From the UHGV virus genome UHGV-0214148: 64,000 nt of DNA. One strand, written 5' to 3'. The notes below the pieces were generated by a model. That model made no database searches. It worked only from the letters and a program-made list of their open reading frames with translations, and was not told the DNA's origin. Numbering within the stretch: the first letter of the stretch is position 1; every line of letters begins with the position of its first letter. Both the position numbers and the translations under genes were made by a program. This stretch comes from a virus. Below are positions 563 to 63,508 of the stretch, piece by piece.

Positions 563-615
563 TCTTAATACTCCTTTAGGTTAAACAGTCGAATAGCGTG
601 TAATTCTACAACGCT

Positions 616-640
616 CACCTAAGTAAAATATATCTAAGAT
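616..640. promoter_or_regulatory. AT-rich promoter-like motif CACCTAAGTAAAATATATCTAAGAT
   Basis: Near-identical copies at 59101 and 63484; lies between a terminator hairpin and the start of gene 173..562. Orientation unresolved. Confidence 0.4.
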
Positions 641-43997: not shown

Positions 43998-44456
43998 TCA
44001 GTACAAACACGATGTCAAGTATTGGTTGTACGAATCGAGTAGTGTCTGACGGTCGGAACGGTAATTCCACAACAAATTATTGAGTTTACGCGATAGGTCA
44101 CGGCTAATCTCCTGGGGCGTTAAAGAGCTTTCGTCAAGAGATAAGCGTTCAGGTACAACATGTAACTTCGGTAACTCATAACGCTCACAAAGTGGAGCCA
44201 GCATTGGTGGGCTCCAGCCACGTTTAACGGCTTGTTGGTTTAAATTTCGGGTGTAGACATAAACGTAGTAAGCATAGGTGTTGACATCCGCAACATACTC
44301 ACGCATTGCATTATTGTCAATTTTCCAATTCACCATTATCGGTGGTGTAGGAGGAAGTTCCAGTGGCCTATAAGCTGGACGTTTAACTTCGTCGCCGTAG
44401 CTATTACTCACCAACCCCATGAACACCATCATGATGAATAACAGCATTTTCATCAA
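43998..44456 (-). CDS. secreted Pro-rich protein (candidate outer spanin-like)
   Basis: 152-aa ORF; N-terminal signal-like peptide MMKMLLFIMMVFMGLVSNSYG then RPAYRPLELPPTPP; no lipobox Cys. Confidence 0.5.
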   Translation of the reverse strand: MMKMLLFIMMVFMGLVSNSYGDEVKRPAYRPLELPPTPPIMVNWKIDNNAMREYVADVNTYAYYVYVYTRNLNQQAVKRGWSPPMLAPLCERYELPKLHVVPERLSLDESSLTPQEISRDLSRKLNNLLWNYRSDRQTLLDSYNQYLTSCLY

Positions 44457-49172: not shown

Positions 49173-49682
49173 TTAGAAGAACGGCTGATTTGGAATGACA
49201 GCGTACTCTAAAATGAACATATGTTCCGGGGCGTCTTCTTTACGCCAGACTTTGTGTGTCGACACAAGTTTTTCCAGAATCGTTAAGAAACTACGTTGGC
49301 AGTATGTGTTTTCACCAAGCAGTAGATTTTGAAGTTCTACAGTAGCGTCCATATACGCCTGTTTAAAGACTAAACTACGGTTATACTGCCCGGTAAAATT
49401 CCAAAGCAAGACCTTCCCTTCTTCGGTTTCTTTTACCGTTGGCCGTAAACCACAAATCCACAGTAAGGCAAGGTTGACGTTCCAGTCAAACTCTAAACCT
49501 TCTTCTTCGTCAACACCGAATGCTGTGGGTAAAGCATCGTAAAATTCGTGTTTCTCTGCGAATTCTTCATCCGACTTAATCTCGTCTTCGATACTGCTTC
49601 GGACGATACTGTAAACGTCTTTCGCGGTCAATTGTGCGGCTTTTGTAATGCCTTTATACCAATCGGTTACTACGATGCTCAA
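49173..49682 (-). CDS. hypothetical protein
   Basis: 169-aa ORF; 4-bp overlap with upstream gene. Confidence 0.55.
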   Translation of the reverse strand: MSIVVTDWYKGITKAAQLTAKDVYSIVRSSIEDEIKSDEEFAEKHEFYDALPTAFGVDEEEGLEFDWNVNLALLWICGLRPTVKETEEGKVLLWNFTGQYNRSLVFKQAYMDATVELQNLLLGENTYCQRSFLTILEKLVSTHKVWRKEDAPEHMFILEYAVIPNQPFF

Positions 49683-50404
49683 AGGGTAACTCCTCTATTG
49701 ATTGGAAAACTCGTGTTTATCGTATCCCAAATTCTACTAACTTCCGCCAGTTGAATCTGACGTGGTGTTTTCTTCGCAAACGCAAGCTGACGTGGGGCCG
49801 AGCCCACAACAACAGGCACATCGATTTTCGCGCTATAGAACGCGGCGTCTTTCATAAAGCCTGCCATTTCTCGTTGTGCTGCTCGAGATTTGCTTTTGAT
49901 TCGCGTGTGAGCGCCACTTTCACCCCAGTGGTAAGCTAACGCAACTTCAGCCATGGTGGGCTTGCGTTTGAGTCGTTTGGTTAACCCCTTCTCAAGATGT
50001 TTAACATACGCAGTAGCCAGCAAAACAGCGTTACGCGGATTATACAAATCGGCATTCTGACTAAGACCTAATTCTTTTCCATAAAGCTTTAGCAGATTAC
50101 GCTTGGTACTTGGAAGCATCTGTACCAGGCTGTGTGCTCGTGAGCTTTTGTTGTAAGCCTTGGGATCAAAACGCGATTCACGATAAATCAGTGTAATCAT
50201 CAGCTTGGGATCAACGCCCTGCTTTCGTGAGATTTCCACAATTAACGGGCTGACTTTTTCGAACCGATGTTGGATTTGTGCAAACTCTCGCTGATGCTTA
50301 GAATGTGGCGTTGACGTTGACGCCTGTGCGTTAAACGCGAAAAGTGTTACCAGTAAAAGAAAGAAGATACGAAACATTTTGTTTCTCCAGTTGGATTTAT
50401 ACAT
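49679..50404 (-). CDS. secreted lytic transglycosylase (SLT domain)
   Basis: 241-aa ORF; signal peptide MFRIFFLLLVTLFAFNAQAS; LIYRESRFDPKAYN...SLVQMLPST matches family-1 lytic transglycosylase motifs. Start may be the internal Met (MFRIF). Confidence 0.7.
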   Translation of the reverse strand: MYKSNWRNKMFRIFFLLLVTLFAFNAQASTSTPHSKHQREFAQIQHRFEKVSPLIVEISRKQGVDPKLMITLIYRESRFDPKAYNKSSRAHSLVQMLPSTKRNLLKLYGKELGLSQNADLYNPRNAVLLATAYVKHLEKGLTKRLKRKPTMAEVALAYHWGESGAHTRIKSKSRAAQREMAGFMKDAAFYSAKIDVPVVVGSAPRQLAFAKKTPRQIQLAEVSRIWDTINTSFPINRGVTL

Positions 50405-52470: not shown

Positions 52471-52656
52471 CTAATTCCGCCATTCGCATTCGCGTTGACG
52501 CCAAATTGAACCCCACGATAGTTTAATCAGATAAGATGAAACTACCCATAAAATCATCACCACACAAAACATGACATAAAGAACCGCTAGAATGGACATG
52601 AAGCCAAACCCTGCCGCATCCACAATACGACGGAACCAATCAGTTTGCATAAACAA
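52471..52656 (-). CDS. small membrane protein (61 aa)
   Basis: Track ORF; long hydrophobic core FGFMSILAVLYVMFCVVMILWVVSSYLI; GAAGGAG SD. Confidence 0.45.
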   Translation of the reverse strand: MFMQTDWFRRIVDAAGFGFMSILAVLYVMFCVVMILWVVSSYLIKLSWGSIWRQRECEWRN

Positions 52657-55144
52657 TTTTTACTCCTTCGTTATACACCGCAGGCAATGTCACCCCTTCC
52701 GGTTCGATGACACAGTACGATGCTTCATTAAGTTTAGAATGAACCTCGGCTTCGTGGGAGACTACCAACAGTTGGGAAAATTCTCCCGAGTTTGCTAACG
52801 TTTTAATAAAGCCGACCAGGTTGTTACGGTGCTCCTCATCCATGCCTTCCGAAGGCTCATCCAAAAGCAACGGAAACTGATGCAACTTCAGCGCTTTGTA
52901 CGCAGTCAGCCTGAACATCAGATTAAATATCGCACGCTGCGCCTTAGATCCTTTACGCACGTCAGGAACAGGCTCAGGATGCGTTTTTAGCTGGACAGGA
53001 AAAGTATAATCCAAATCGCCGTCAGTGAGGTCACAAGGCATAACGCGCATGGGGTACGTCCAGACTTGTTCGATATAACGCGTCATTAACTCTGTGATTC
53101 TAACGATAGCGTTGTAAAAATACTTTCTAAGTACACCCTTTTCTGGCGAGAAGGCTTGAATCATCAGTTTGTTATTGAACTGCTGGGCTTGTAAGTCAGC
53201 AAGTTCGCGTTCCAAACTGTTGAGCTGATTCAATTCATTTTCCATCTGACGATAACGTTCGCGTGCGGTTGTAAAAGCATCCAGCTTCCCTTCTCGAGCA
53301 CGTAAGAGTTCCTCGACGACTGTATTTGTCAACGTAACCTTAACATCACTCTCTAGCCGTTCGAATAACGCACTGAAATCATCTACAGCACGTTTAACAT
53401 TCACCAGATAGGTAAGTGTCGTGTTAGCCAGTTCGTGCTCTCTACGACGCATTGAGAGCATTTCTGTGGCTTTACCTAATCGCGACTGTTGGAAGGCGAT
53501 TTTCTGTTGTAAAGCGCCATCGACGTTACCAACGGCCGCTACGGCATCCTGCCATTCTTTTTCCGCCTTCACTAACCGTTGTCGGGTTTCATGATACTCA
53601 ATAGCAGAGTACAACTCGCTGTCAAACGCTGCGCATAGACTCCCGAACTGTTCACGTGATTCAGTGAAGACGTTACGTTCTTGCAAACGCTTAAAGAACA
53701 TGCTCAATACCGGGTCCTTTGAATACGTCAGTACAATCTCACGAACCTGCCGCATATAAGTTACATCAGATTCTAATTCAACACGATAGCGTAATAGGGC
53801 CTCTAACTGTGTTTGCAGTTCCGTGCGCTGCTGTTGTTGTCCGCGAATCGAAGACTCAAGTTCAGGTAAAGAACGCGTAACACCGGGCCGAAACTTAAAC
53901 CGACACTGCGGGCAATCCACTTCCGCTGTTTCTAAGTAGTGATTACGCTCGTGATTTAAATTCTGTAAAACGTTCTCCACTCGCTGGAGTCTATCCCGCA
54001 ACCCTGCGGTTTTTTGATCCATCACCAGAAGCCGTTCTTCCAAAACATTGAGTTTTTCGGTTGAATGAATTGCGTCCAGCGTTGTTCCTAACCGTTGCCC
54101 CCAGACACGCGCGTCGGTAGCCGCACGAAGTTGGTCTAAATTGACGTTGTCGTTAAATAGACCCGGAAAGAGATGCTCGGTGTCCCATTTGGTAAGTAAC
54201 TCACGTAAACGCGCCAATGTATTCTTGAGACCTTCGTGATTCCGCATCAGGTAGTCTTGTCGTGTTGACTCATCCATCAATAACGACAAGTCTTTATTCA
54301 ACATCGATACCTCTGTTTCAGTAGACACGACAGCTTCGCGGGCCGTCGCTTCGTTTTGTCGCGCGACCAGTATCTGTTCATCGGTAGGCAGGCCACCACG
54401 ATGTTGTAATATTGCGTCGATGGTTGGGCCCAAGCTGTTTAATAACGCTTGGATTGTTTCGATGGTGACGGCACGATTTAATCCTGGCAACTGTTCGATT
54501 TCTCGGTTCAATTCACGTAAATCCGATTCCAAACCTTTTAATCTCGTCGCTAACTGCTGCCGTTCTTCCTCGTTCTCAATAACACGCGTCCGTAATTCGG
54601 CGATCTTGCGGCTGGTGATTTCAATACCCCCATTTAAGGCAGTAAGGTTTTTACGTAAACGTTGATAAAACCCTAACGCGTAAGTGAGGTCAGAGGTACT
54701 TAAACGGTAAAACCATTTGCGGCGTAATTCGGTTCCCGCATCGGTTAACAACACCTCACCATTTAATAGTTCTTTAATCTCTTTCGTAATACCCGTGATT
54801 TCTTCAACACGGGAGTTGTAGACTTTCGCATTACCTTGCTCGACGATCTTTGTCCCCGTGGTCAGGTTCTCAATATCGCAAACCAAAGAGTTGCCTTTAC
54901 GGGCAACTTTGAATCGATAGCGTTGATCGCCAACTAAACAGTAGTTCGTGTAAGAACCGCCGTCCCTGAATTCAGTTTTAGCTGGTGCTAAGGGTAAGAA
55001 CACAGACAGTAGACTGGTTTTCCCGCAGCCGTTCCCACCCAGGATAATTGTTGTCGGAGACTGGATAGTGAAATCGAAGGTTTCAATTTCATGTAACCCC
55101 ATCCCCGTAAAACCTTTGAGTATAATGCGTTCAACTTTTAGCAT
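52640..55144 (-). CDS. Rad50/SbcC-like SMC-family ATPase
   Basis: Walker A GGNGCGKTS at N-terminus; long coiled-coil centre with CPQC zinc-hook-like motif; C-terminal LLLDEPSEGMDEEH (Walker B) and VVSHEAE. Start set to ATG at 55144 (GGAGGTG SD). Confidence 0.75.
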   Translation of the reverse strand: MLKVERIILKGFTGMGLHEIETFDFTIQSPTTIILGGNGCGKTSLLSVFLPLAPAKTEFRDGGSYTNYCLVGDQRYRFKVARKGNSLVCDIENLTTGTKIVEQGNAKVYNSRVEEITGITKEIKELLNGEVLLTDAGTELRRKWFYRLSTSDLTYALGFYQRLRKNLTALNGGIEITSRKIAELRTRVIENEEERQQLATRLKGLESDLRELNREIEQLPGLNRAVTIETIQALLNSLGPTIDAILQHRGGLPTDEQILVARQNEATAREAVVSTETEVSMLNKDLSLLMDESTRQDYLMRNHEGLKNTLARLRELLTKWDTEHLFPGLFNDNVNLDQLRAATDARVWGQRLGTTLDAIHSTEKLNVLEERLLVMDQKTAGLRDRLQRVENVLQNLNHERNHYLETAEVDCPQCRFKFRPGVTRSLPELESSIRGQQQQRTELQTQLEALLRYRVELESDVTYMRQVREIVLTYSKDPVLSMFFKRLQERNVFTESREQFGSLCAAFDSELYSAIEYHETRQRLVKAEKEWQDAVAAVGNVDGALQQKIAFQQSRLGKATEMLSMRRREHELANTTLTYLVNVKRAVDDFSALFERLESDVKVTLTNTVVEELLRAREGKLDAFTTARERYRQMENELNQLNSLERELADLQAQQFNNKLMIQAFSPEKGVLRKYFYNAIVRITELMTRYIEQVWTYPMRVMPCDLTDGDLDYTFPVQLKTHPEPVPDVRKGSKAQRAIFNLMFRLTAYKALKLHQFPLLLDEPSEGMDEEHRNNLVGFIKTLANSGEFSQLLVVSHEAEVHSKLNEASYCVIEPEGVTLPAVYNEGVKIVYAN

Positions 55145-55194
55145 ACCCACCTCCATAAAGACGGAGTGTGGTGTAAAAAGAAAAAAATAAAGAA

Positions 55195-55218
55195 AGGGAG
55201 AACCCGAAGGTTCTCCCT
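55195..55218 (-). terminator. stem-loop terminator (AGGGAGAACC / GGTTCTCCCT)
   Basis: 10-bp stem, CGAA loop, long A-run on plus side; between gene 55223..55831 and the ATPase gene. Confidence 0.6.
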
Positions 55219-56364: not shown

Positions 56365-56401
56365 TTTAATACTCCTTTAGGTAAATATGTCGTAAAAAGG
56401 A

Positions 56402-56418
56402 CCCCGGACGTACCGGGG
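56402..56418 (-). terminator. stem-loop terminator (CCCCGG / CCGGGG)
   Basis: GC stem preceded on plus by an A-rich tract; downstream of the secreted-protein gene block. Confidence 0.5.
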
Positions 56419-56430
56419 CCAAGACTACAC

Positions 56431-56820
56431 TCAAAGATCTAATTCGATAGCACCAGCCATCTTGCCCCGTTCTTCTATAACGATCAGATAACGGTCGCGA
56501 GATTTGCTTTTAGCGAGAGTTAAGACAACGGTAGGGTCGCACGTTTTCGTGGTGATAGGAAGAACCTCTCTTGCGACGGAATCGAGCAGAAAGTAATAAC
56601 CTGCGGGACACATTGTGCCGCCATCAGCTTTTACCAGAATATAGCGCCCGTCTGCGCCGACTTCTTGGCAGATTGTTTCACCGACTTCGCAAACTTCAAA
56701 CCCCGGAGGATTGTACTGGTAATCGGTATTGTTGTTTGGGGTTAGCAGTAAATCGTTAACTTGAGTAGATGCTGCTACACTCAGGGAGAAGAAGAATGCT
56801 AAAACGCAGACGAGACGCAT
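56431..56820 (-). CDS. small secreted Cys-containing protein (paralog of 56831..57241)
   Basis: 129-aa ORF; signal peptide MRLVCVLAFFFSLSVAAS; mature part has CQ...G.RY...GG..C pattern shared with neighbour. Confidence 0.55.
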   Translation of the reverse strand: MRLVCVLAFFFSLSVAASTQVNDLLLTPNNNTDYQYNPPGFEVCEVGETICQEVGADGRYILVKADGGTMCPAGYYFLLDSVAREVLPITTKTCDPTVVLTLAKSKSRDRYLIVIEERGKMAGAIELDL

Positions 56821-56830
56821 GAGTTACTCC

Positions 56831-57241
56831 TTAAATTTTAAGTTTATCCATAGCTACAACGATAGGTTTTTCCGAAGTGTCTAATATCCCTACCATTGGC
56901 ACACCATCTACGACTTCGAAGAATGGTTTGTTATTACCAGAGCATAGACGTTTGTCGTTGTATTCGAGACGCTGAGCCTTCCACGTTTCGAGGTTGAGTA
57001 CGGACATTGGGCTGTCGTAGCACCAGGCACCACCTTGCTCAACGATGAATACGTATCTGCTACCTTTGTATTTAAACAGGCTCTTTGCCTGGCAGTACAA
57101 CCCGTCTATTTCCGTACAATAGAAATCATCGGTGCTATTGACGTACTTAATATTGTCTGGCAACTGTATTGTCTTTGCTGTAGCGTTGACAGAGAACAGA
57201 ACAGCCATTGCAATGAGAAGAGTATTAATGATAGTTTTCAT
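56831..57241 (-). CDS. small secreted Cys-containing protein
   Basis: 136-aa ORF; signal peptide MKTIINTLLIAMAVLFSVNATA; shares Cys pattern with 56431..56820. Confidence 0.55.
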   Translation of the reverse strand: MKTIINTLLIAMAVLFSVNATAKTIQLPDNIKYVNSTDDFYCTEIDGLYCQAKSLFKYKGSRYVFIVEQGGAWCYDSPMSVLNLETWKAQRLEYNDKRLCSGNNKPFFEVVDGVPMVGILDTSEKPIVVAMDKLKI

Positions 57242-57252
57242 GATAAAAGTCC

Positions 57253-57738
57253 TTAGTATTTAGATTGTTCTACGTACTTCTTAACCAGGTAAGCGAATTC
57301 GGCAACACCGATATCACCGAACCAAATCAGGTAACCGGGGTCGATGTTGTAGTAATAACCGACGAGTTTCTTGGTGTGTGGGTTGTATAGCGTTACGATG
57401 TATTCCCAACCACAAGCGTTAGCTTTACAACCGCCACTTTCAATCCAGATTTTGTTGTTGATGTTTACCGGATACATGTTACCGCCAGGGCCATCCATGT
57501 AACCTTTAGAGCCGAACATACCATCCAGTCCCACAGGGTCTAGTGTTTTATCAACAACGGCTTTAAACGACTTATCGGTATCGTACAAGTCGTTGATGTT
57601 TGGGCACGCATTTGGCTGGCCTTCCCAAGCGTTTCCATCACAGGTAAGCAATTCGTCTACGGAGGCCGCATCTACAGTTGGCGTGGCACCGATAAACAAG
57701 AAAACCAGAAAGAACATCAGTGTATGTAAACGTTTCAT
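57253..57738 (-). CDS. small secreted Cys-containing protein
   Basis: 161-aa ORF; signal peptide MKRLHTLMFFLVFLFIGATPTVDA. Confidence 0.55.
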   Translation of the reverse strand: MKRLHTLMFFLVFLFIGATPTVDAASVDELLTCDGNAWEGQPNACPNINDLYDTDKSFKAVVDKTLDPVGLDGMFGSKGYMDGPGGNMYPVNINNKIWIESGGCKANACGWEYIVTLYNPHTKKLVGYYYNIDPGYLIWFGDIGVAEFAYLVKKYVEQSKY

Positions 57739-57756
57739 TGTAACTACTCCTTTAGA

Positions 57757-58149
57757 TTATTCGGCAGGACGATTTAAGGTAACGCGTCCGATTAATTCAG
57801 CGTTGTGAAAGAAGTCCACAGCGGTATAGTTACCAACTGATAGCGGATGGATACTAACTGACATTACTTTTGGTTGTTCGCAGGCGATATCCGTCAGGCG
57901 TTGGTAGACTTGTGCACGAGTGTCAGCAATGAGTAATCCCGTACACGTTTCACCACGCACTAAACGATAAACTTGCAGTTTACCGAAACTGCGCATTAAC
58001 GTAGGCGTCTCATCCGGGTTGATAATCGGTGACTCAGGAGCCGGTTCGTAATAGCGGACATCCGAATCACCGAAAGCATAAGTGCCAGTAATTCCGACCG
58101 CACAGAAAACAATGATAGTATAAAGTATAGTTCTGATATTCATTTTCAC
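57757..58149 (-). CDS. small secreted protein
   Basis: 130-aa ORF; signal peptide MKMNIRTILYTIIVFCAVGITGTYA. Confidence 0.55.
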   Translation of the reverse strand: MKMNIRTILYTIIVFCAVGITGTYAFGDSDVRYYEPAPESPIINPDETPTLMRSFGKLQVYRLVRGETCTGLLIADTRAQVYQRLTDIACEQPKVMSVSIHPLSVGNYTAVDFFHNAELIGRVTLNRPAE

Positions 58150-58171
58150 GCACTCTAAAAAAGATTAATAC

Positions 58172-58633
58172 TTATTTGTTAGGACGGGTGTGTCCACAGT
58201 TCTGGAAGAAAGTTTCAGATAAACGATCGCCTTCTACGGTAAAGTTAGCGGCATCGTTACCATTGATACTCACACTGAAAGTTTTGGCATTACCGATAGC
58301 AATAACGAAAGCAACCCAAGCGTGTTCTGCCTTGTCGCTACCGTCCACGGTAGGGATGTTATAGGTTTTGCCGTTTACGACAATATCCATCGTGTTATCT
58401 TCAGCGTTAGTTGCACCTACGGGTTCCCCGTAATACCAAACCATGCGACCGTAAAATTTGCGATTCACAGTTTCTGTGTCACAGTTGATAGACAGTCCGT
58501 TTCCGGCGGTGTCTTCGATTTCGTAAACTGCCTGGCCAGGGTTTTGTATTTGTTCCCAACTATTGATTGCAGCGTATGCGCTATTGAGGCCGAAAGTTAA
58601 AATGGTTATTAAGAATGTGATAAAGGTTTTCAT
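58172..58633 (-). CDS. small secreted protein
   Basis: 153-aa ORF; signal peptide MKTFITFLITILTFGLNSAYA. Confidence 0.55.
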   Translation of the reverse strand: MKTFITFLITILTFGLNSAYAAINSWEQIQNPGQAVYEIEDTAGNGLSINCDTETVNRKFYGRMVWYYGEPVGATNAEDNTMDIVVNGKTYNIPTVDGSDKAEHAWVAFVIAIGNAKTFSVSINGNDAANFTVEGDRLSETFFQNCGHTRPNK

Positions 58634-58679: not shown

Positions 58680-59051
58680 TTAAATAACTGTGTTGGGTAA
58701 TGCTTTAATCTGTGTATAACTATCTCCGATACCTCTTATCATTTCCAGACGCTCTTCTGTAGAAAGGCTTTGGTTAATGTCTTTGTCAAGATTGAACAGT
58801 GTCAAGAGTTTTGCAATTGCAACCGTCAAGTTGTCGGACAGCTCGTTGTTTTTACGCCATTCTTCGTTACGGAAAATAGAGATAAGGTCTTTCGCCTGGC
58901 CTTCAGCGTGCGGTTTGGCTAACTGCGCGTCACGCTGTTCGATAAGGTATGCTTCGTTAGTAAGTAAACGTTTCAGGTTTTCTGGGTTAGTGGCAGCGCG
59001 AGTAACGATCATTAATACAACAAACGGGTCTTTAAATAATTCGTTTTTCAT
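58680..59051 (-). CDS. hypothetical protein; paralog of 173..562
   Basis: 123-aa ORF; N-terminal 15 residues identical to ORF 173..562; homologous upstream region. Confidence 0.7.
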   Translation of the reverse strand: MKNELFKDPFVVLMIVTRAATNPENLKRLLTNEAYLIEQRDAQLAKPHAEGQAKDLISIFRNEEWRKNNELSDNLTVAIAKLLTLFNLDKDINQSLSTEERLEMIRGIGDSYTQIKALPNTVI

Positions 59052-59100
59052 CTTTAGTTCTCCTAAAATGGTTTTCGTTAAGTGAGAGCTTTTGTACTCT

Positions 59101-59125
59101 CACCTAAGTAATATATATCTGAAAT
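59101..59125. promoter_or_regulatory. AT-rich promoter-like motif CACCTAAGTAATATATATCTGAAAT
   Basis: Between terminator hairpin 59158..59177 and the start of gene 58680..59051; preceded by imperfect inverted repeat AGTGAGAG/CTCTCACC. Confidence 0.4.
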
Positions 59126-59157: not shown

Positions 59158-59177
59158 GGTGGGGGTAAACCCCCACC
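59158..59177 (-). terminator. stem-loop terminator (GGTGGGGG / CCCCCACC)
   Basis: 8-bp GC stem, TAAA loop, preceded on plus by AAAAAAATAAAA; directly upstream (minus sense) of motif 59101..59125. Confidence 0.6.
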
Positions 59178-59772: not shown

Positions 59773-60546
59773 CTAATAATTAAGTTTTACATCGGCAATA
59801 AACAGCAATTGTTTACCATGTTGCTGCACTTCTTTCCAACCTAGTTTCATAGCAGCGTCAACAACATCTAACATGCTGTAACGGGACATCAAAGATTCTG
59901 ATTTTGTTCCTGACATTAAGTAAAGTGGCTCATTAGGGCTACGGTCACGTGCGTCAGGAAGTTCCCGAGAGACTGCTGATCCTTCGGGTACGGTAACAAC
60001 ATGAATCACGGTAAATGGTCTCTTGTGCGTCAGATAGATACGAAACCCAACGTGTTCAGATTCATGAAAGACTTTCTTCACAACCACATCTTTTAGTGTC
60101 GTCTGAACATCAGCCCCAGGTAATATCGTGGTTTCACGTGAAACGAAACAACGGCTATTTTCAATCGTGGAGAAATAATTACGTATCGGCAAACTAGCGT
60201 TATGATCGCGCAGTTTTTTGCTCAGTAGATCGAAGTTCAGTTCTTTAACCTTTTCTAGCCATTCTTTGGCTTGTTGAATGTAATAACTACCAACAGCGCG
60301 ATAAGTTAATACCTTACCTGTGCTCACTTGCCAGAGCTTGATGCTTAGTGAATTTGGCTTATAGCGACGATACTCACCACGCGTATAGTTGATGCGCTCG
60401 TAACGCTCTACACCGTCAACGGGTGCAGTTTCGACCGATTGTAATTGCAGCGTACGATCTAATCTATCGGCAAATAGTAGTGATGTTAGCGGGCCTTCGA
60501 TCATATACGGTTCGGTTTTAAAGATATCGTCTAAATGGACTTTCAT
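59773..60546 (-). CDS. hypothetical protein, GW/QLLF C-terminal motif family (member 1)
   Basis: 257-aa ORF ending ...AAMKLGWKEVQQHGKQLLFIADVKLNY. Confidence 0.6.
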   Translation of the reverse strand: MKVHLDDIFKTEPYMIEGPLTSLLFADRLDRTLQLQSVETAPVDGVERYERINYTRGEYRRYKPNSLSIKLWQVSTGKVLTYRAVGSYYIQQAKEWLEKVKELNFDLLSKKLRDHNASLPIRNYFSTIENSRCFVSRETTILPGADVQTTLKDVVVKKVFHESEHVGFRIYLTHKRPFTVIHVVTVPEGSAVSRELPDARDRSPNEPLYLMSGTKSESLMSRYSMLDVVDAAMKLGWKEVQQHGKQLLFIADVKLNY

Positions 60547-60613: not shown

Positions 60614-61765
60614 TTAGAGGTCAGCAACAAACAACAGCTGACTGCCGTATTTTTGCACGTCAGCCCAACCGTAGTCTTTCCCGATTATAGGTAGATGTAA
60701 AATATCCAGCTTCTCGTCTTTCGCTTTTAGTTTCGCCATTAACGCATTGGACTCCTCAGCACTGAGGAGTAATGCTGGCTCTTTTTCAGTACGTCCTTCT
60801 GCGGTTGGGAAGAAATTGTAATAGCTGCGAGTAGGTAAATCGACAGAAAAACTACGATTGCCTATTCTGGCGATGAACGCAACTCCTTCACAGTTAGCAT
60901 CTACACTGCACGACCATCCCGCCTCCGTTAAAAGACCTTTTAACAGACACCACACTTTAAGTTGGTTCTTAGAAACTGTACGGTAAATAGCAAGATGTTC
61001 AGGAAGTAAATGTACGCCCATAACCACGTTTTCAGATTTCTCGTCAAGCAACTCTGGATGCTGTATCGGGAACAATAATTCAGTGATACCCACGTTATCA
61101 ATTTTGTTAACAAAATCAGTTAATTCATCTTTTAAGGTAGACACTTGATTTTCTCCTTTGTCTTCAATAATCAGGTGGGGTTCGCCGCTAATTAAAATGT
61201 GGTAAACGAGATCGTCAGTAGAACGGTAAGTGAGCTTGATTGCTTTATCACTTAATATTTCGTAGCGGAAGAAACTTTCGTACCAACTTGAGCCGAAATC
61301 GTTTTGTGTAAGCTCCTGCTCAACTTTGATGGTTTTTGCTTCAAAGCCGATTAACTCGCTTAATAACGCGAGTTCTTGTTTAGTTAAAATAGCTACACCG
61401 TGAAAGGGCACTTGTTCAAGCTGAAAACATAACTTAGTGACTTCACCATTTGGGAAGACCTTAAACATAATCTTCCGGTTGCTACTCTTTTCCCTAACAA
61501 CGAGTTTACGGTAATTTAGTCCACAATTTGTGTAAGCCGCGAACTGGTAACCTTCAATTTCTTCATCGGAAGTACAGACATCGACAGGCGCGATAATCTC
61601 ATCGTATTCACTAAGTACACAGCAGCCCAATTTATAACCAAACAACGTATGTTGTAAAAAATAGTCGAGGGTTAAGCTTGGTAGTGGCCAAGCCCGATTA
61701 TAGCATCTGTCCATCAGTTCTTTTAGGTACTTGGCATGTCTTGGTTTAGAAATAATATTTCGCAT
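60614..61765 (-). CDS. hypothetical protein, GW/QLLF C-terminal motif family (member 2)
   Basis: 383-aa ORF ending ...GKDYGWADVQKYGSQLLFVADL; FFPTAEGRTEKEPALLLSAEESNALMAKLKA parallels member 3. Confidence 0.6.
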   Translation of the reverse strand: MRNIISKPRHAKYLKELMDRCYNRAWPLPSLTLDYFLQHTLFGYKLGCCVLSEYDEIIAPVDVCTSDEEIEGYQFAAYTNCGLNYRKLVVREKSSNRKIMFKVFPNGEVTKLCFQLEQVPFHGVAILTKQELALLSELIGFEAKTIKVEQELTQNDFGSSWYESFFRYEILSDKAIKLTYRSTDDLVYHILISGEPHLIIEDKGENQVSTLKDELTDFVNKIDNVGITELLFPIQHPELLDEKSENVVMGVHLLPEHLAIYRTVSKNQLKVWCLLKGLLTEAGWSCSVDANCEGVAFIARIGNRSFSVDLPTRSYYNFFPTAEGRTEKEPALLLSAEESNALMAKLKAKDEKLDILHLPIIGKDYGWADVQKYGSQLLFVADL

Positions 61766-63480: not shown

Positions 63481-63483
63481 ATT

Positions 63484-63508
63484 CACTTAAGTAATATATA
63501 TCTGAAAT
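63484..63508. promoter_or_regulatory. AT-rich promoter-like motif CACTTAAGTAATATATATCTGAAAT
   Basis: 24/25 identical to the 59101 copy; directly after hairpin 63454..63480 and about 25 bp upstream of the plus-strand start at 63534. Confidence 0.4.

Follow-up and report, generated by a model that had tools for sequence, protein, structure and literature searches.

The window analysed here, a 64,000-nucleotide (nt) stretch of the UHGV virus genome UHGV-0214148, is identical or nearly so to the uncultivated 225-kb contig IMGVR_UViG_3300029126_000001, and its proteins are kin of those of the SPN3US/phiEaH2/Machina group of jumbo phages. On its minus strand lie five consecutive genes, called A to E below, that encode small cysteine-containing proteins with export-type N-termini, and it is this cluster and its links to bacterial genomic islands that concern us. 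The first-pass annotation of this DNA had described five tandem genes for secreted proteins with several cysteines, and all five are present where it placed them:

58172-58633 (-): gene A, 153 amino acids (aa); predicted exported protein of the YfjT family (PF27224), predicted cleavage between AYA and AI, two invariant cysteines (C51, C146)
57757-58143 (-): gene B, 128 aa (130 aa from GTG 58149); orthologue of SPN3US gp180, phrog_9424, two invariant mature cysteines
57253-57738 (-): gene C, 161 aa; predicted divergent member of the Ivy superfamily, signal peptide ending in VDA before AS, cysteine pair C33 and C45, loop C104-KANA-C109
56831-57241 (-): gene D, 136 aa; predicted exported four-cysteine protein of the D/E/gp181 superfamily, phrog_8968
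56431-56820 (-): gene E, 129 aa; predicted exported four-cysteine protein, orthologue of SPN3US gp183, phrog_5248, paralogue of D

Gaps of only 10-22 nt separate these open reading frames (ORFs), and an AGGAG/AAGGA Shine-Dalgarno sequence accompanies four of the five genes. Because the alignment of orthologues of B begins at residue 3 of the 130-aa form, the true start of B is probably ATG 58143, giving a protein of 128 aa. The ratio of nonsynonymous to synonymous substitution (dN/dS) against a sister phage lies between 0.07 and 0.19 for all five, and A-E are therefore real genes under purifying selection. The same ratios give no sign of positive selection acting on a whole gene, and turnover of alleles is the one observation that speaks for an arms race.

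Export was judged by rules, namely a basic n-region, an h-region of 7-15 residues, a c-region with a small-x-small pattern at positions -3 and -1, and no further transmembrane (TM) segment. The N-termini of A-E carry one or two basic residues, an uncharged hydrophobic stretch of 12-21 residues and a small-x-small site, with no TM-grade segment beyond, and by these rules A, C, D and E have a type I Sec signal peptide. B is borderline, with a long h-region (21 residues) and a variable c-region that in some orthologues offers no clean cleavage site, and its N-terminus could be a signal anchor rather than a cleaved peptide. A lipobox was looked for in all five proteins and none was found. The n/h/c architecture, though not its sequence, is kept in every orthologue from eight related phages and is missing from all flanking genes, and the AxA residues of phage A and bacterial YfjT align without variation. 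Mature cysteines number two in A, two in B and four in each of C, D and E, even counts that are consistent with disulfide bonding, and they are conserved in the family alignments, unlike the occasional cysteines within signal peptides. When the same filter was applied to the non-overlapping ORF set of the whole window (n=77), seven ORFs passed, five of them consecutive, and the chance of a run of at least five is about 7e-5. Apart from A-E and the SLT-domain protein described below, the one ORF of the window with a signal-peptide-like N-terminus is the minus-strand gene at 43998-44456 (152 aa, phrog_8165, function unassigned), in which a proline-rich stretch follows the hydrophobic segment and two mature cysteines are present.

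It is highly improbable that these N-termini are no export signals, or that the proteins are ordinary structural components whose clustering reflects tandem duplication only. The long hydrophobic segment of B and its ill-defined cleavage site are what such an explanation has to offer, and it must contend with an architecture conserved over five unrelated or barely related families, with the homology of C and A to periplasmic Ivy and to YfjT, with the annotation of K-12 YfjS as a lipoprotein, and with the absence of the SPN3US orthologues from the virion (below). In the A and C families, bacterial members are exported or share the same Sec-type N-terminus, Ivy being periplasmic and the N-termini of YfjT proteins aligning with that of A. 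Because the N-terminal rules, the conservation and the homology of A and C to bacterial families point the same way, A-E are predicted to be exported by the Sec pathway and located in the periplasm, with cleavage predicted for all but the less clear B, in agreement with what had first been read from their N-termini and cysteines.

Several features frame the five genes:

59158-59177 (-): intrinsic terminator closing the upstream unit, GGTGGGGGTTTACCCCCACC followed by a T-run; 8-bp stem with 7 GC pairs
59100-59124 (-): promoter-like 25-mer, TTTCAGATATATATTACTTAGGTGA, at the end of an 88% A+T stretch
58680-59051 (-): leader ORF of 123 aa, without signal peptide, phrog_27024, between the promoter-like motif and gene A
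56400-56420 (-): intrinsic terminator 11 nt past the stop codon of E; 8-bp stem with 7 GC pairs and a T-tail, marking the end of the operon

A-E form one short operon, consisting of the promoter-like motif, an optional leader ORF, the five genes in the order A-B-C-D-E, and the terminator. This phage and one related contig (L066) have the leader ORF; the sister contigs L067 and L068 lack it, and in them the promoter region directly adjoins A. The ORF was therefore recently gained or lost within the leader of the operon. Three copies of the 25-mer are found in the window (615-639, 59100-59124 and 63483-63507), all on the minus strand, where no copy would be expected by chance. Its 21-mer core has 39 exact copies in IMG/VR, all on contigs of this jumbo-phage group, which measure 35-246 kb, mostly exceed 100 kb and include SPN3US, phiEaH2 and Huxley, with up to six copies per genome and a single strand used in each contig. 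In each of the five genomes checked, those of SPN3US, SPAsTU, Machina, phiEaH2 and Asesino, the orthologous cluster has a copy immediately upstream. The motif is the sole DNA conserved between this phage and its catalogued relatives. Only the 21-25-mer is informative, as the 8-mer TATATTAC by itself is not enriched (three found and 2.2 expected), and sigma-70-like promoter matches are fewer than in shuffled sequence (4 vs 8.7), lending no support to host-type promoters. In jumbo phages that encode RNA polymerases (RNAPs), a conserved AT-rich element of about 10 nt has been found near position -10 of early operons wherever transcripts were mapped (PMC7598289). Because the motif is specific to the group, lies upstream of the cluster in relatives and fits that description of virion-RNAP promoters, TTTCAGATATATATTACTTAGGTGA is probably the early virion-RNAP promoter of the operon, whose expression would then fall early in infection.

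The cluster is not peculiar to this phage. In all eight relatives inspected, the synteny comprises small secreted genes, a gene of about 160 aa, one of about 205 aa and an SbcC/SMC-like gene; gp180, gp182 and gp183 of SPN3US are the orthologues of B, D and E, and phiEaH2, Asesino and Machina have orthologues with the same synteny and the same promoter-like motif. The SPN3US-type phages differ in two respects, in that a gp181-type gene stands where this phage has the Ivy-like gene C, and in that A is absent; no counterpart of A or C was found in any of the eight. D differs too, being an island-type allele that is about 30% identical to D of the SPN3US-type phages and 80% identical to an E. coli allele. 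The order A-B-C-D-E recurs, whole or in part, in at least four further uncultivated contigs of jumbo-phage size. At the DNA level, the window has no relatives among 50,697 phage records except for a 60-nt non-coding element. A version with four genes is conserved in synteny throughout the SPN3US/phiEaH2/Machina group, and the initial remark that a block of periplasm-targeted proteins is unusual in a lytic phage must be qualified accordingly. None of gp180-gp183 is among the 83 SPN3US virion proteins detected by mass spectrometry, the list passing from gp173 to gp193 (Table S4 of the SPN3US essential-gene paper). Because these orthologues are missing from the particles, A-E are read as proteins that are not parts of the virion, and the idea that they might be ordinary structural components, which the first-pass annotation had named as grounds for giving up its proposal, finds no support. 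A search of the literature on SPN3US signal peptides or gp180-gp183 returned nothing relevant.

Protein C gives the clearest lead to function. Its nearest relatives are proteins about 65% identical to it encoded on E. coli chromosomes, and a search of 50,697 catalogued phage genomes found no C-like gene (tblastn, E<=1). A profile of the close family compared with the PDB places Ivy (1GPQ/1XS0) in the top three, over the Cys-x4-Cys loop, though not significantly. A search of 1.84 billion representative proteins with the C-family profile retrieved 53 relatives at E<=1e-3; Pfam Ivy is recognised in 23 of the 26 full-length members that were aligned (best 8e-12), and the widened profile matches only Ivy chains in the PDB, at 3.5e-12 to 1e-8. 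Structure prediction with AlphaFold2 (AF2) followed by Foldseek comparison, as originally suggested for periplasmic inhibitor folds, leads to the same place, in that the top eight matches of the C model are all Ivy, with probabilities of 0.85-1.0 and a template modelling (TM) score of about 0.5, after which the probabilities fall to 0.1-0.2. The predicted structure thus has the Ivy fold, an antiparallel sheet with helices on its flanks. The only NCBIfam or Pfam matches of C or its E. coli homologue are to Ivy and lie below threshold (18.6 bits for C on NCBIfam NF007443, where the cutoff is 180, and 16.8 bits for the E. coli homologue P0002 on PF08816, where it is 21), and one E. coli copy is labelled 'Ivy family c-type lysozyme inhibitor' by PGAP. 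Neither the fold matches nor the sequence matches of C in the PDB include a Spackle chain, and no C-type fold was found in the viral structure library. C retains the Cys-x4-Cys clamp of the Ivy loop and its lysine; the loop consensus of the wider family is C[EKQ]xH[NA]C, and three forms occur in E. coli alleles, CKAHAC, CKANAC and CKANTC, the last in P0012 and P0015.

From profile and model comparison, C is best described as an Ivy-superfamily member that shares fold and clamp and is not an orthologue of Ivy. The closest known proteins are E. coli Ivy (YkfE) and P. aeruginosa Ivyp1 and Ivyp2 (PF08816; PDB 1GPQ, 1XS0, 1UUZ, 4PS6), from which C differs by an additional conserved N-terminal cysteine pair and a helical segment; C comes from a lytic jumbo phage and mobile islands, whereas Ivy is a core chromosomal gene. 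Ivy proteins are periplasmic inhibitors of C-type lysozymes, and Ivyp1 and Ivyp2 inhibit the lytic transglycosylase MltB in vitro (PMC10139938).

With signal peptides removed, hhalign relates D to E at 85% (E 6e-6), the gp181-type family to D at 97% and the gp181-type family to E at 95%; an alignment of 20 sequences of this superfamily has four cysteine columns, three invariant and one at least 90% conserved, and the families cross-match in PHROG (phrog_5248, phrog_8968 and the gp181 type). By these comparisons D and E are true paralogues, as had been surmised from a shared residue pattern, and their kinship extends to the third, gp181-type family. B shows a marginal relation to the E family (hhalign 20%, E 1e-3), in which its two cysteines are aligned to Cys3 and Cys4 of E; by sequence, A and C are unrelated to the rest of the cluster. 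A matches K-12 YfjT by BLASTP (E 3e-13 over 133 aa) and by hhalign (97%), an alignment of the family has 17 invariant columns that include both cysteines, and PF27224 (YfjT) is precomputed in Pfam on close homologues of A, which together assign A to the YfjT family. The domain shared by YfjS and YafY (PF20494) has no match in D, E or B at E<=1, where K-12 YfjS itself scores 1e-68; YfjS compared with the E family by hhalign is marginal (13-20%, E 1-2e-3 over 90 columns, with two cysteines aligned). A direct Pfam scan of A-E gave only noise below threshold, including matches to AlgF, ATP-grasp_5 and DUF5114, which were dropped. The YfjT and A profiles found nothing meaningful in the PDB, and the only PDB match of the D/E/gp181 profile, the designed protein ThreeFoil, was rejected, its score being inflated by three identical repeats, each with an independent E value of 8-13.

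What the first-pass annotation missed is that the cluster is in part a mobile cassette, which enterobacterial CP4-type islands also carry:

56806-57749 (-): C-D two-gene cassette, collinear at the DNA level with E. coli CP4-type island cargo

By blastn, the C-D block is 73.6% identical over 952 contiguous nt (E 3e-161) to a region of E. coli O121 strain RM8352 (L026:3490-4433), the alignment spanning C, D and their spacer. D itself is 80% identical to the O121 island protein WP_000848829.1 (136 aa, secreted), which is encoded next to the C homologue in RM8352. The relation is closer still in the sister phage L068, whose C-D block is 82.6% identical to the island and whose D gene shares 91% DNA identity with the O121 gene. 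Because the two phage D alleles are nearer to the E. coli allele (80% and 85% at the aa level) than to each other (76% in protein, 77% in DNA), the comparison indicates that alleles passed between phage and island more than once, and the host is likely E. coli or a close relative. A C homologue, chromosomal in every case, is found in 138 of the 5,426 complete genomes of E. coli, and it lies in a variable cargo slot of CP4-type integrative islands that is flanked on one side by genes for a dynamin-like GTPase, YjcZ/RdcB and a patatin, and on the other by a DUF932-antirestriction-RadC-DUF987-CbeA/CbtA block.

The gp181-type family has travelled in a similar way. Chromosomal members occur in islands of Yersinia rohdei and Pantoea ananatis (L015, L018), between a gene for a YfjR-like WYL regulator and a PF27224 YfjT gene, in a slot equivalent to that of the C and D homologues in E. 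coli. The Yersinia rohdei protein is 73% identical to gp105 of Erwinia phage phiEaH2, and this pair is a second, independent case in which jumbo phages and CP4-type islands have recently exchanged genes for secreted proteins. In these islands the gp181-type paralogue of D and E occupies the position of yfjS, directly upstream of yfjT. The order in K-12 CP4-57 is yfjR-ypjK-yfjS-yfjT, near the anti-phage genes abpAB and rnlAB. The YfjS-YfjT/YafY proteins of K-12 CP4-57 and CP4-6 (PF20494, PF27224) thus include the homologue of A, and YfjS differs from the phage proteins in being a lipoprotein with a lipobox (LSAC). No functional study of yfjS or yfjT appears in the literature searched.

In the islands, the Ivy-like gene is often found in a damaged or rearranged state, through an internal stop in O121 RM8352 (L026:3306-3983), through truncation by IS1, or through fusion to the N-terminus of an upstream secreted gene or to dynamin/YjcZ fragments; examples are L026:3306-3983 and L023:6001-6642 and the proteins P0007, P0012, P0013, P0014 and P0015. 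Because such copies are so common, they suggest frequent turnover of the island Ivy-like locus. In an E. coli island (L010:7098-7640), a 180-aa secreted protein encoded directly upstream of the Ivy-like gene carries the E/YfjS-like motif C..YFYILD...P......C, and its probability of about 2% against the E family is too weak for homology.

How might such a cluster serve a lytic phage? T4 makes two early periplasmic or membrane proteins of superinfection exclusion, Spackle (Sp, gp61.3) and Imm, of which Spackle inhibits the gp5 tail lysozyme, and gp16 of T7 has a lytic transglycosylase domain that acts during entry. Because of the gp16 entry domain and the Spackle precedent, a role in exclusion is plausible for a periplasmic inhibitor. 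The proposed logic would be that of T4, an early, Sec-exported small protein directed against the wall enzyme of an incoming phage, on a different structural basis, since Spackle is helical and has no sequence or fold kinship to C; unlike T4, this phage has a battery of five genes from at least four families, shared with bacterial islands. An experimental hint comes from E. coli O121, where knockdown of hypo_04657 by CRISPR interference is reported to improve plaquing of T7 significantly; its product has an Ivy-like domain with the loop CKANTC, and inhibition of a phage lysozyme was proposed by the authors (preprint 10.1101/2024.04.20.590424). That loop is the one seen in P0012 and P0015, one residue from that of C in the window, and the gene likewise has hypothetical genes around it. 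It differs in being chromosomal and in having, according to its authors, an extra helical C-terminal domain.

The interpretation that we favour, tentatively and at a little under an even chance, is that the operon encodes an early periplasmic battery that neutralises the muralytic or entry enzymes of competing phages and so brings about superinfection exclusion. It is favoured because the promoter is probably an early one, the orthologues are absent from virions, the island surroundings are rich in defence genes, and alleles turn over. The operon would be transcribed early in infection, and its five products would be exported through Sec to the periplasm of the infected cell, where they would fold with disulfide bonds. 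There the battery would bind and neutralise enzymes that breach or traverse the wall, most likely the lytic transglycosylases and lysozymes that other phages trying to infect the same cell carry in their tails or virions. C would plug the active-site cleft of a peptidoglycan glycosidase with its disulfide-clamped loop, and A, B, D and E may be further binders with other specificities. The outcome would be superinfection exclusion together with protection from lysis from without, and in the islands of E. coli, Yersinia and Pantoea the same cargo would protect the bacterium from phages, with alleles exchanged with phage. Of the functions first proposed for the block, enzyme inhibition and superinfection exclusion have thus gained the Ivy-superfamily assignment of C and the anti-T7 phenotype reported in the preprint; the lead concerns one of the five proteins, in which the canonical histidine of Ivy is replaced.

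Several observations weigh against this interpretation. C taken alone falls below the family thresholds, with no Pfam match at E<=1, and its AF2 model is only moderate (predicted local distance difference test, pLDDT, 67.5; predicted TM score, pTM, 0.64). The loop of C reads CKANAC where that of Ivy reads CKPHDC, the central histidine being replaced by asparagine and the aspartate by alanine. For B, D and E there is no PDB or Pfam match and no fold has been assigned, the AF2 model of E, built from a 15-sequence superfamily alignment, being poor (pLDDT 43) and left out of the fold search. An inhibitor role for A, B, D and E would be guilt by association, and export, timing, inhibition and the identity of the target are all matters that we infer. 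The link between hypo_04657 and the C family is a putative one, drawn through the loop motif, the Ivy-like fold and the occurrence of the family in an O121 genome, and the C-family gene of O121 RM8352 carries an internal stop. The inhibition of both MltA and MltB by E. coli Ivy is weak (PMC10139938). A search of PADLOC-DB 2.0 with the leader ORF, A-E and the two downstream genes gave no match at E<=0.1. Finally, a bacterial scan with one genome per species found no relative of B and no close E-type protein, the one match of E being a spurious 14-residue hit; for that reason sharing with islands is not claimed for all five families.

Another explanation is that the proteins serve other envelope functions, such as masking of receptors or porins, interference with Tol/Ton or secretion, or remodelling, and that C is an Ivy fold without inhibitor activity. 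C lacks the histidine that Ivy inserts into the catalytic cleft, nothing ties A, B, D and E to inhibitors, and T5 Llp and Cor, exclusion factors that are periplasmic or lipoproteins, act on receptors. We nevertheless regard this explanation as quite unlikely, since the Cys-x4-Cys clamp is kept across the wider C family and most relatives, like some of the E. coli alleles (CKAHAC), have the histidine, suggesting that a cleft-binding loop is retained.

An inhibitor could also be turned inward. The window encodes a protein of 241 aa at 49679-50404 (-) with an N-terminal export segment, or one like a signal-anchor-release (SAR) sequence, and an SLT lytic transglycosylase domain recognised by Pfam (E 5e-15; phrog_4067 transglycosylase). 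It is probably an endolysin that is exported, and it is a candidate for the partner or target of C. The exported proteins, above all C, might restrain this enzyme or the lytic transglycosylases of the host, keeping the wall intact through the long cycle of a jumbo phage up to the triggering of lysis, much as an antiholin or inhibitor does. Some lytic transglycosylases are inhibited by Ivy-family proteins in vitro, and an inhibitor made early, before the late lysin, would make sense. Such self-control of lysis is unlikely all the same, as the SLT gene lies 6 kb away in another transcription unit, the cassette is kept in bacterial islands where no such endolysin adjoins it, relatives that have the SLT-type context and a gp181-type gene in place of C have no Ivy-like gene, and the phenotype of the E. 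coli knockdown concerns phage resistance and not the timing of lysis.

The arrangement of the genes invites a further comparison, because arrays of unrelated, small, exported and cysteine-stabilised proteins on mobile elements resemble orphan immunity clusters. The cluster might accordingly consist of immunity-like morons directed against animal lysozymes or against periplasmic toxins of competitors, such as peptidoglycan hydrolases of type VI secretion systems (T6SS) or muramidase bacteriocins. They would shield the infected cell or, as island cargo, the bacterium, and the variable alleles, as well as the classical role of Ivy in lysozyme tolerance, fit that idea. There are, however, no effector genes nearby, protection from animal lysozyme would be of little use to a strictly lytic phage within a single cycle, and a conflict between phages is the better fit to the T7 phenotype and to a promoter that is likely early, so that we consider this origin distinctly improbable.

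Ivy, signal peptides and periplasmic superinfection exclusion are already known; what is new is an Ivy-type gene in a phage, a secreted battery of several families that is conserved across a jumbo-phage group, and the partial identity of that battery with the yfjS/yfjT-type and Ivy-like cargo of CP4-type islands, including exchange at the DNA level. If the interpretation is right, with C an Ivy-type protein would for the first time be assigned to a phage, as a functional analogue of Spackle on a different fold. One exchangeable module would link three unstudied sets of genes, SPN3US gp180-gp183, yfjS/yfjT/yafY and the island Ivy-like gene with its reported anti-T7 effect. The DNA-level traffic between jumbo phage and host island, at 91% for one allele, makes E. 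coli or a close relative the likely host of this uncultivated 225-kb phage, and the motif upstream of the operon is a sharply defined candidate early promoter for the SPN3US-like group. A broader proposal, which we put forward as doubtful, is that these proteins belong to an undescribed class of mobile periplasmic shields that circulates between CP4-type defence islands and jumbo phages of the nucleus-forming type. Its members would be the Ivy-like proteins, YfjT, the D/E/gp181/YfjS-like superfamily and B, blocking the wall-penetrating enzymes of competing phages or periplasmic steps of entry; YfjT and the D/E superfamily would then represent new inhibitor folds, and yfjS, yfjT and yafY would be anti-phage genes.

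Features on either side of the operon deserve brief mention. Downstream, a hairpin with a perfect 10-bp stem at 55195-55218, which scores as a terminator on both strands, lies between the gene for a 202-aa protein and the SbcC-like gene at 52640-55156, the orthologue of gp186, which is essential in SPN3US. Upstream, two adjacent minus-strand genes at 59773-60546 and 60614-61765 encode proteins of 257 and 383 aa that have a C-terminal domain in common. The C-terminus of each matches phrog_26772 and phrog_33648 and closes with ...QLLF(I/V)AD...; the two genes, which belong to the upstream unit under the same motif, are likely paralogues.

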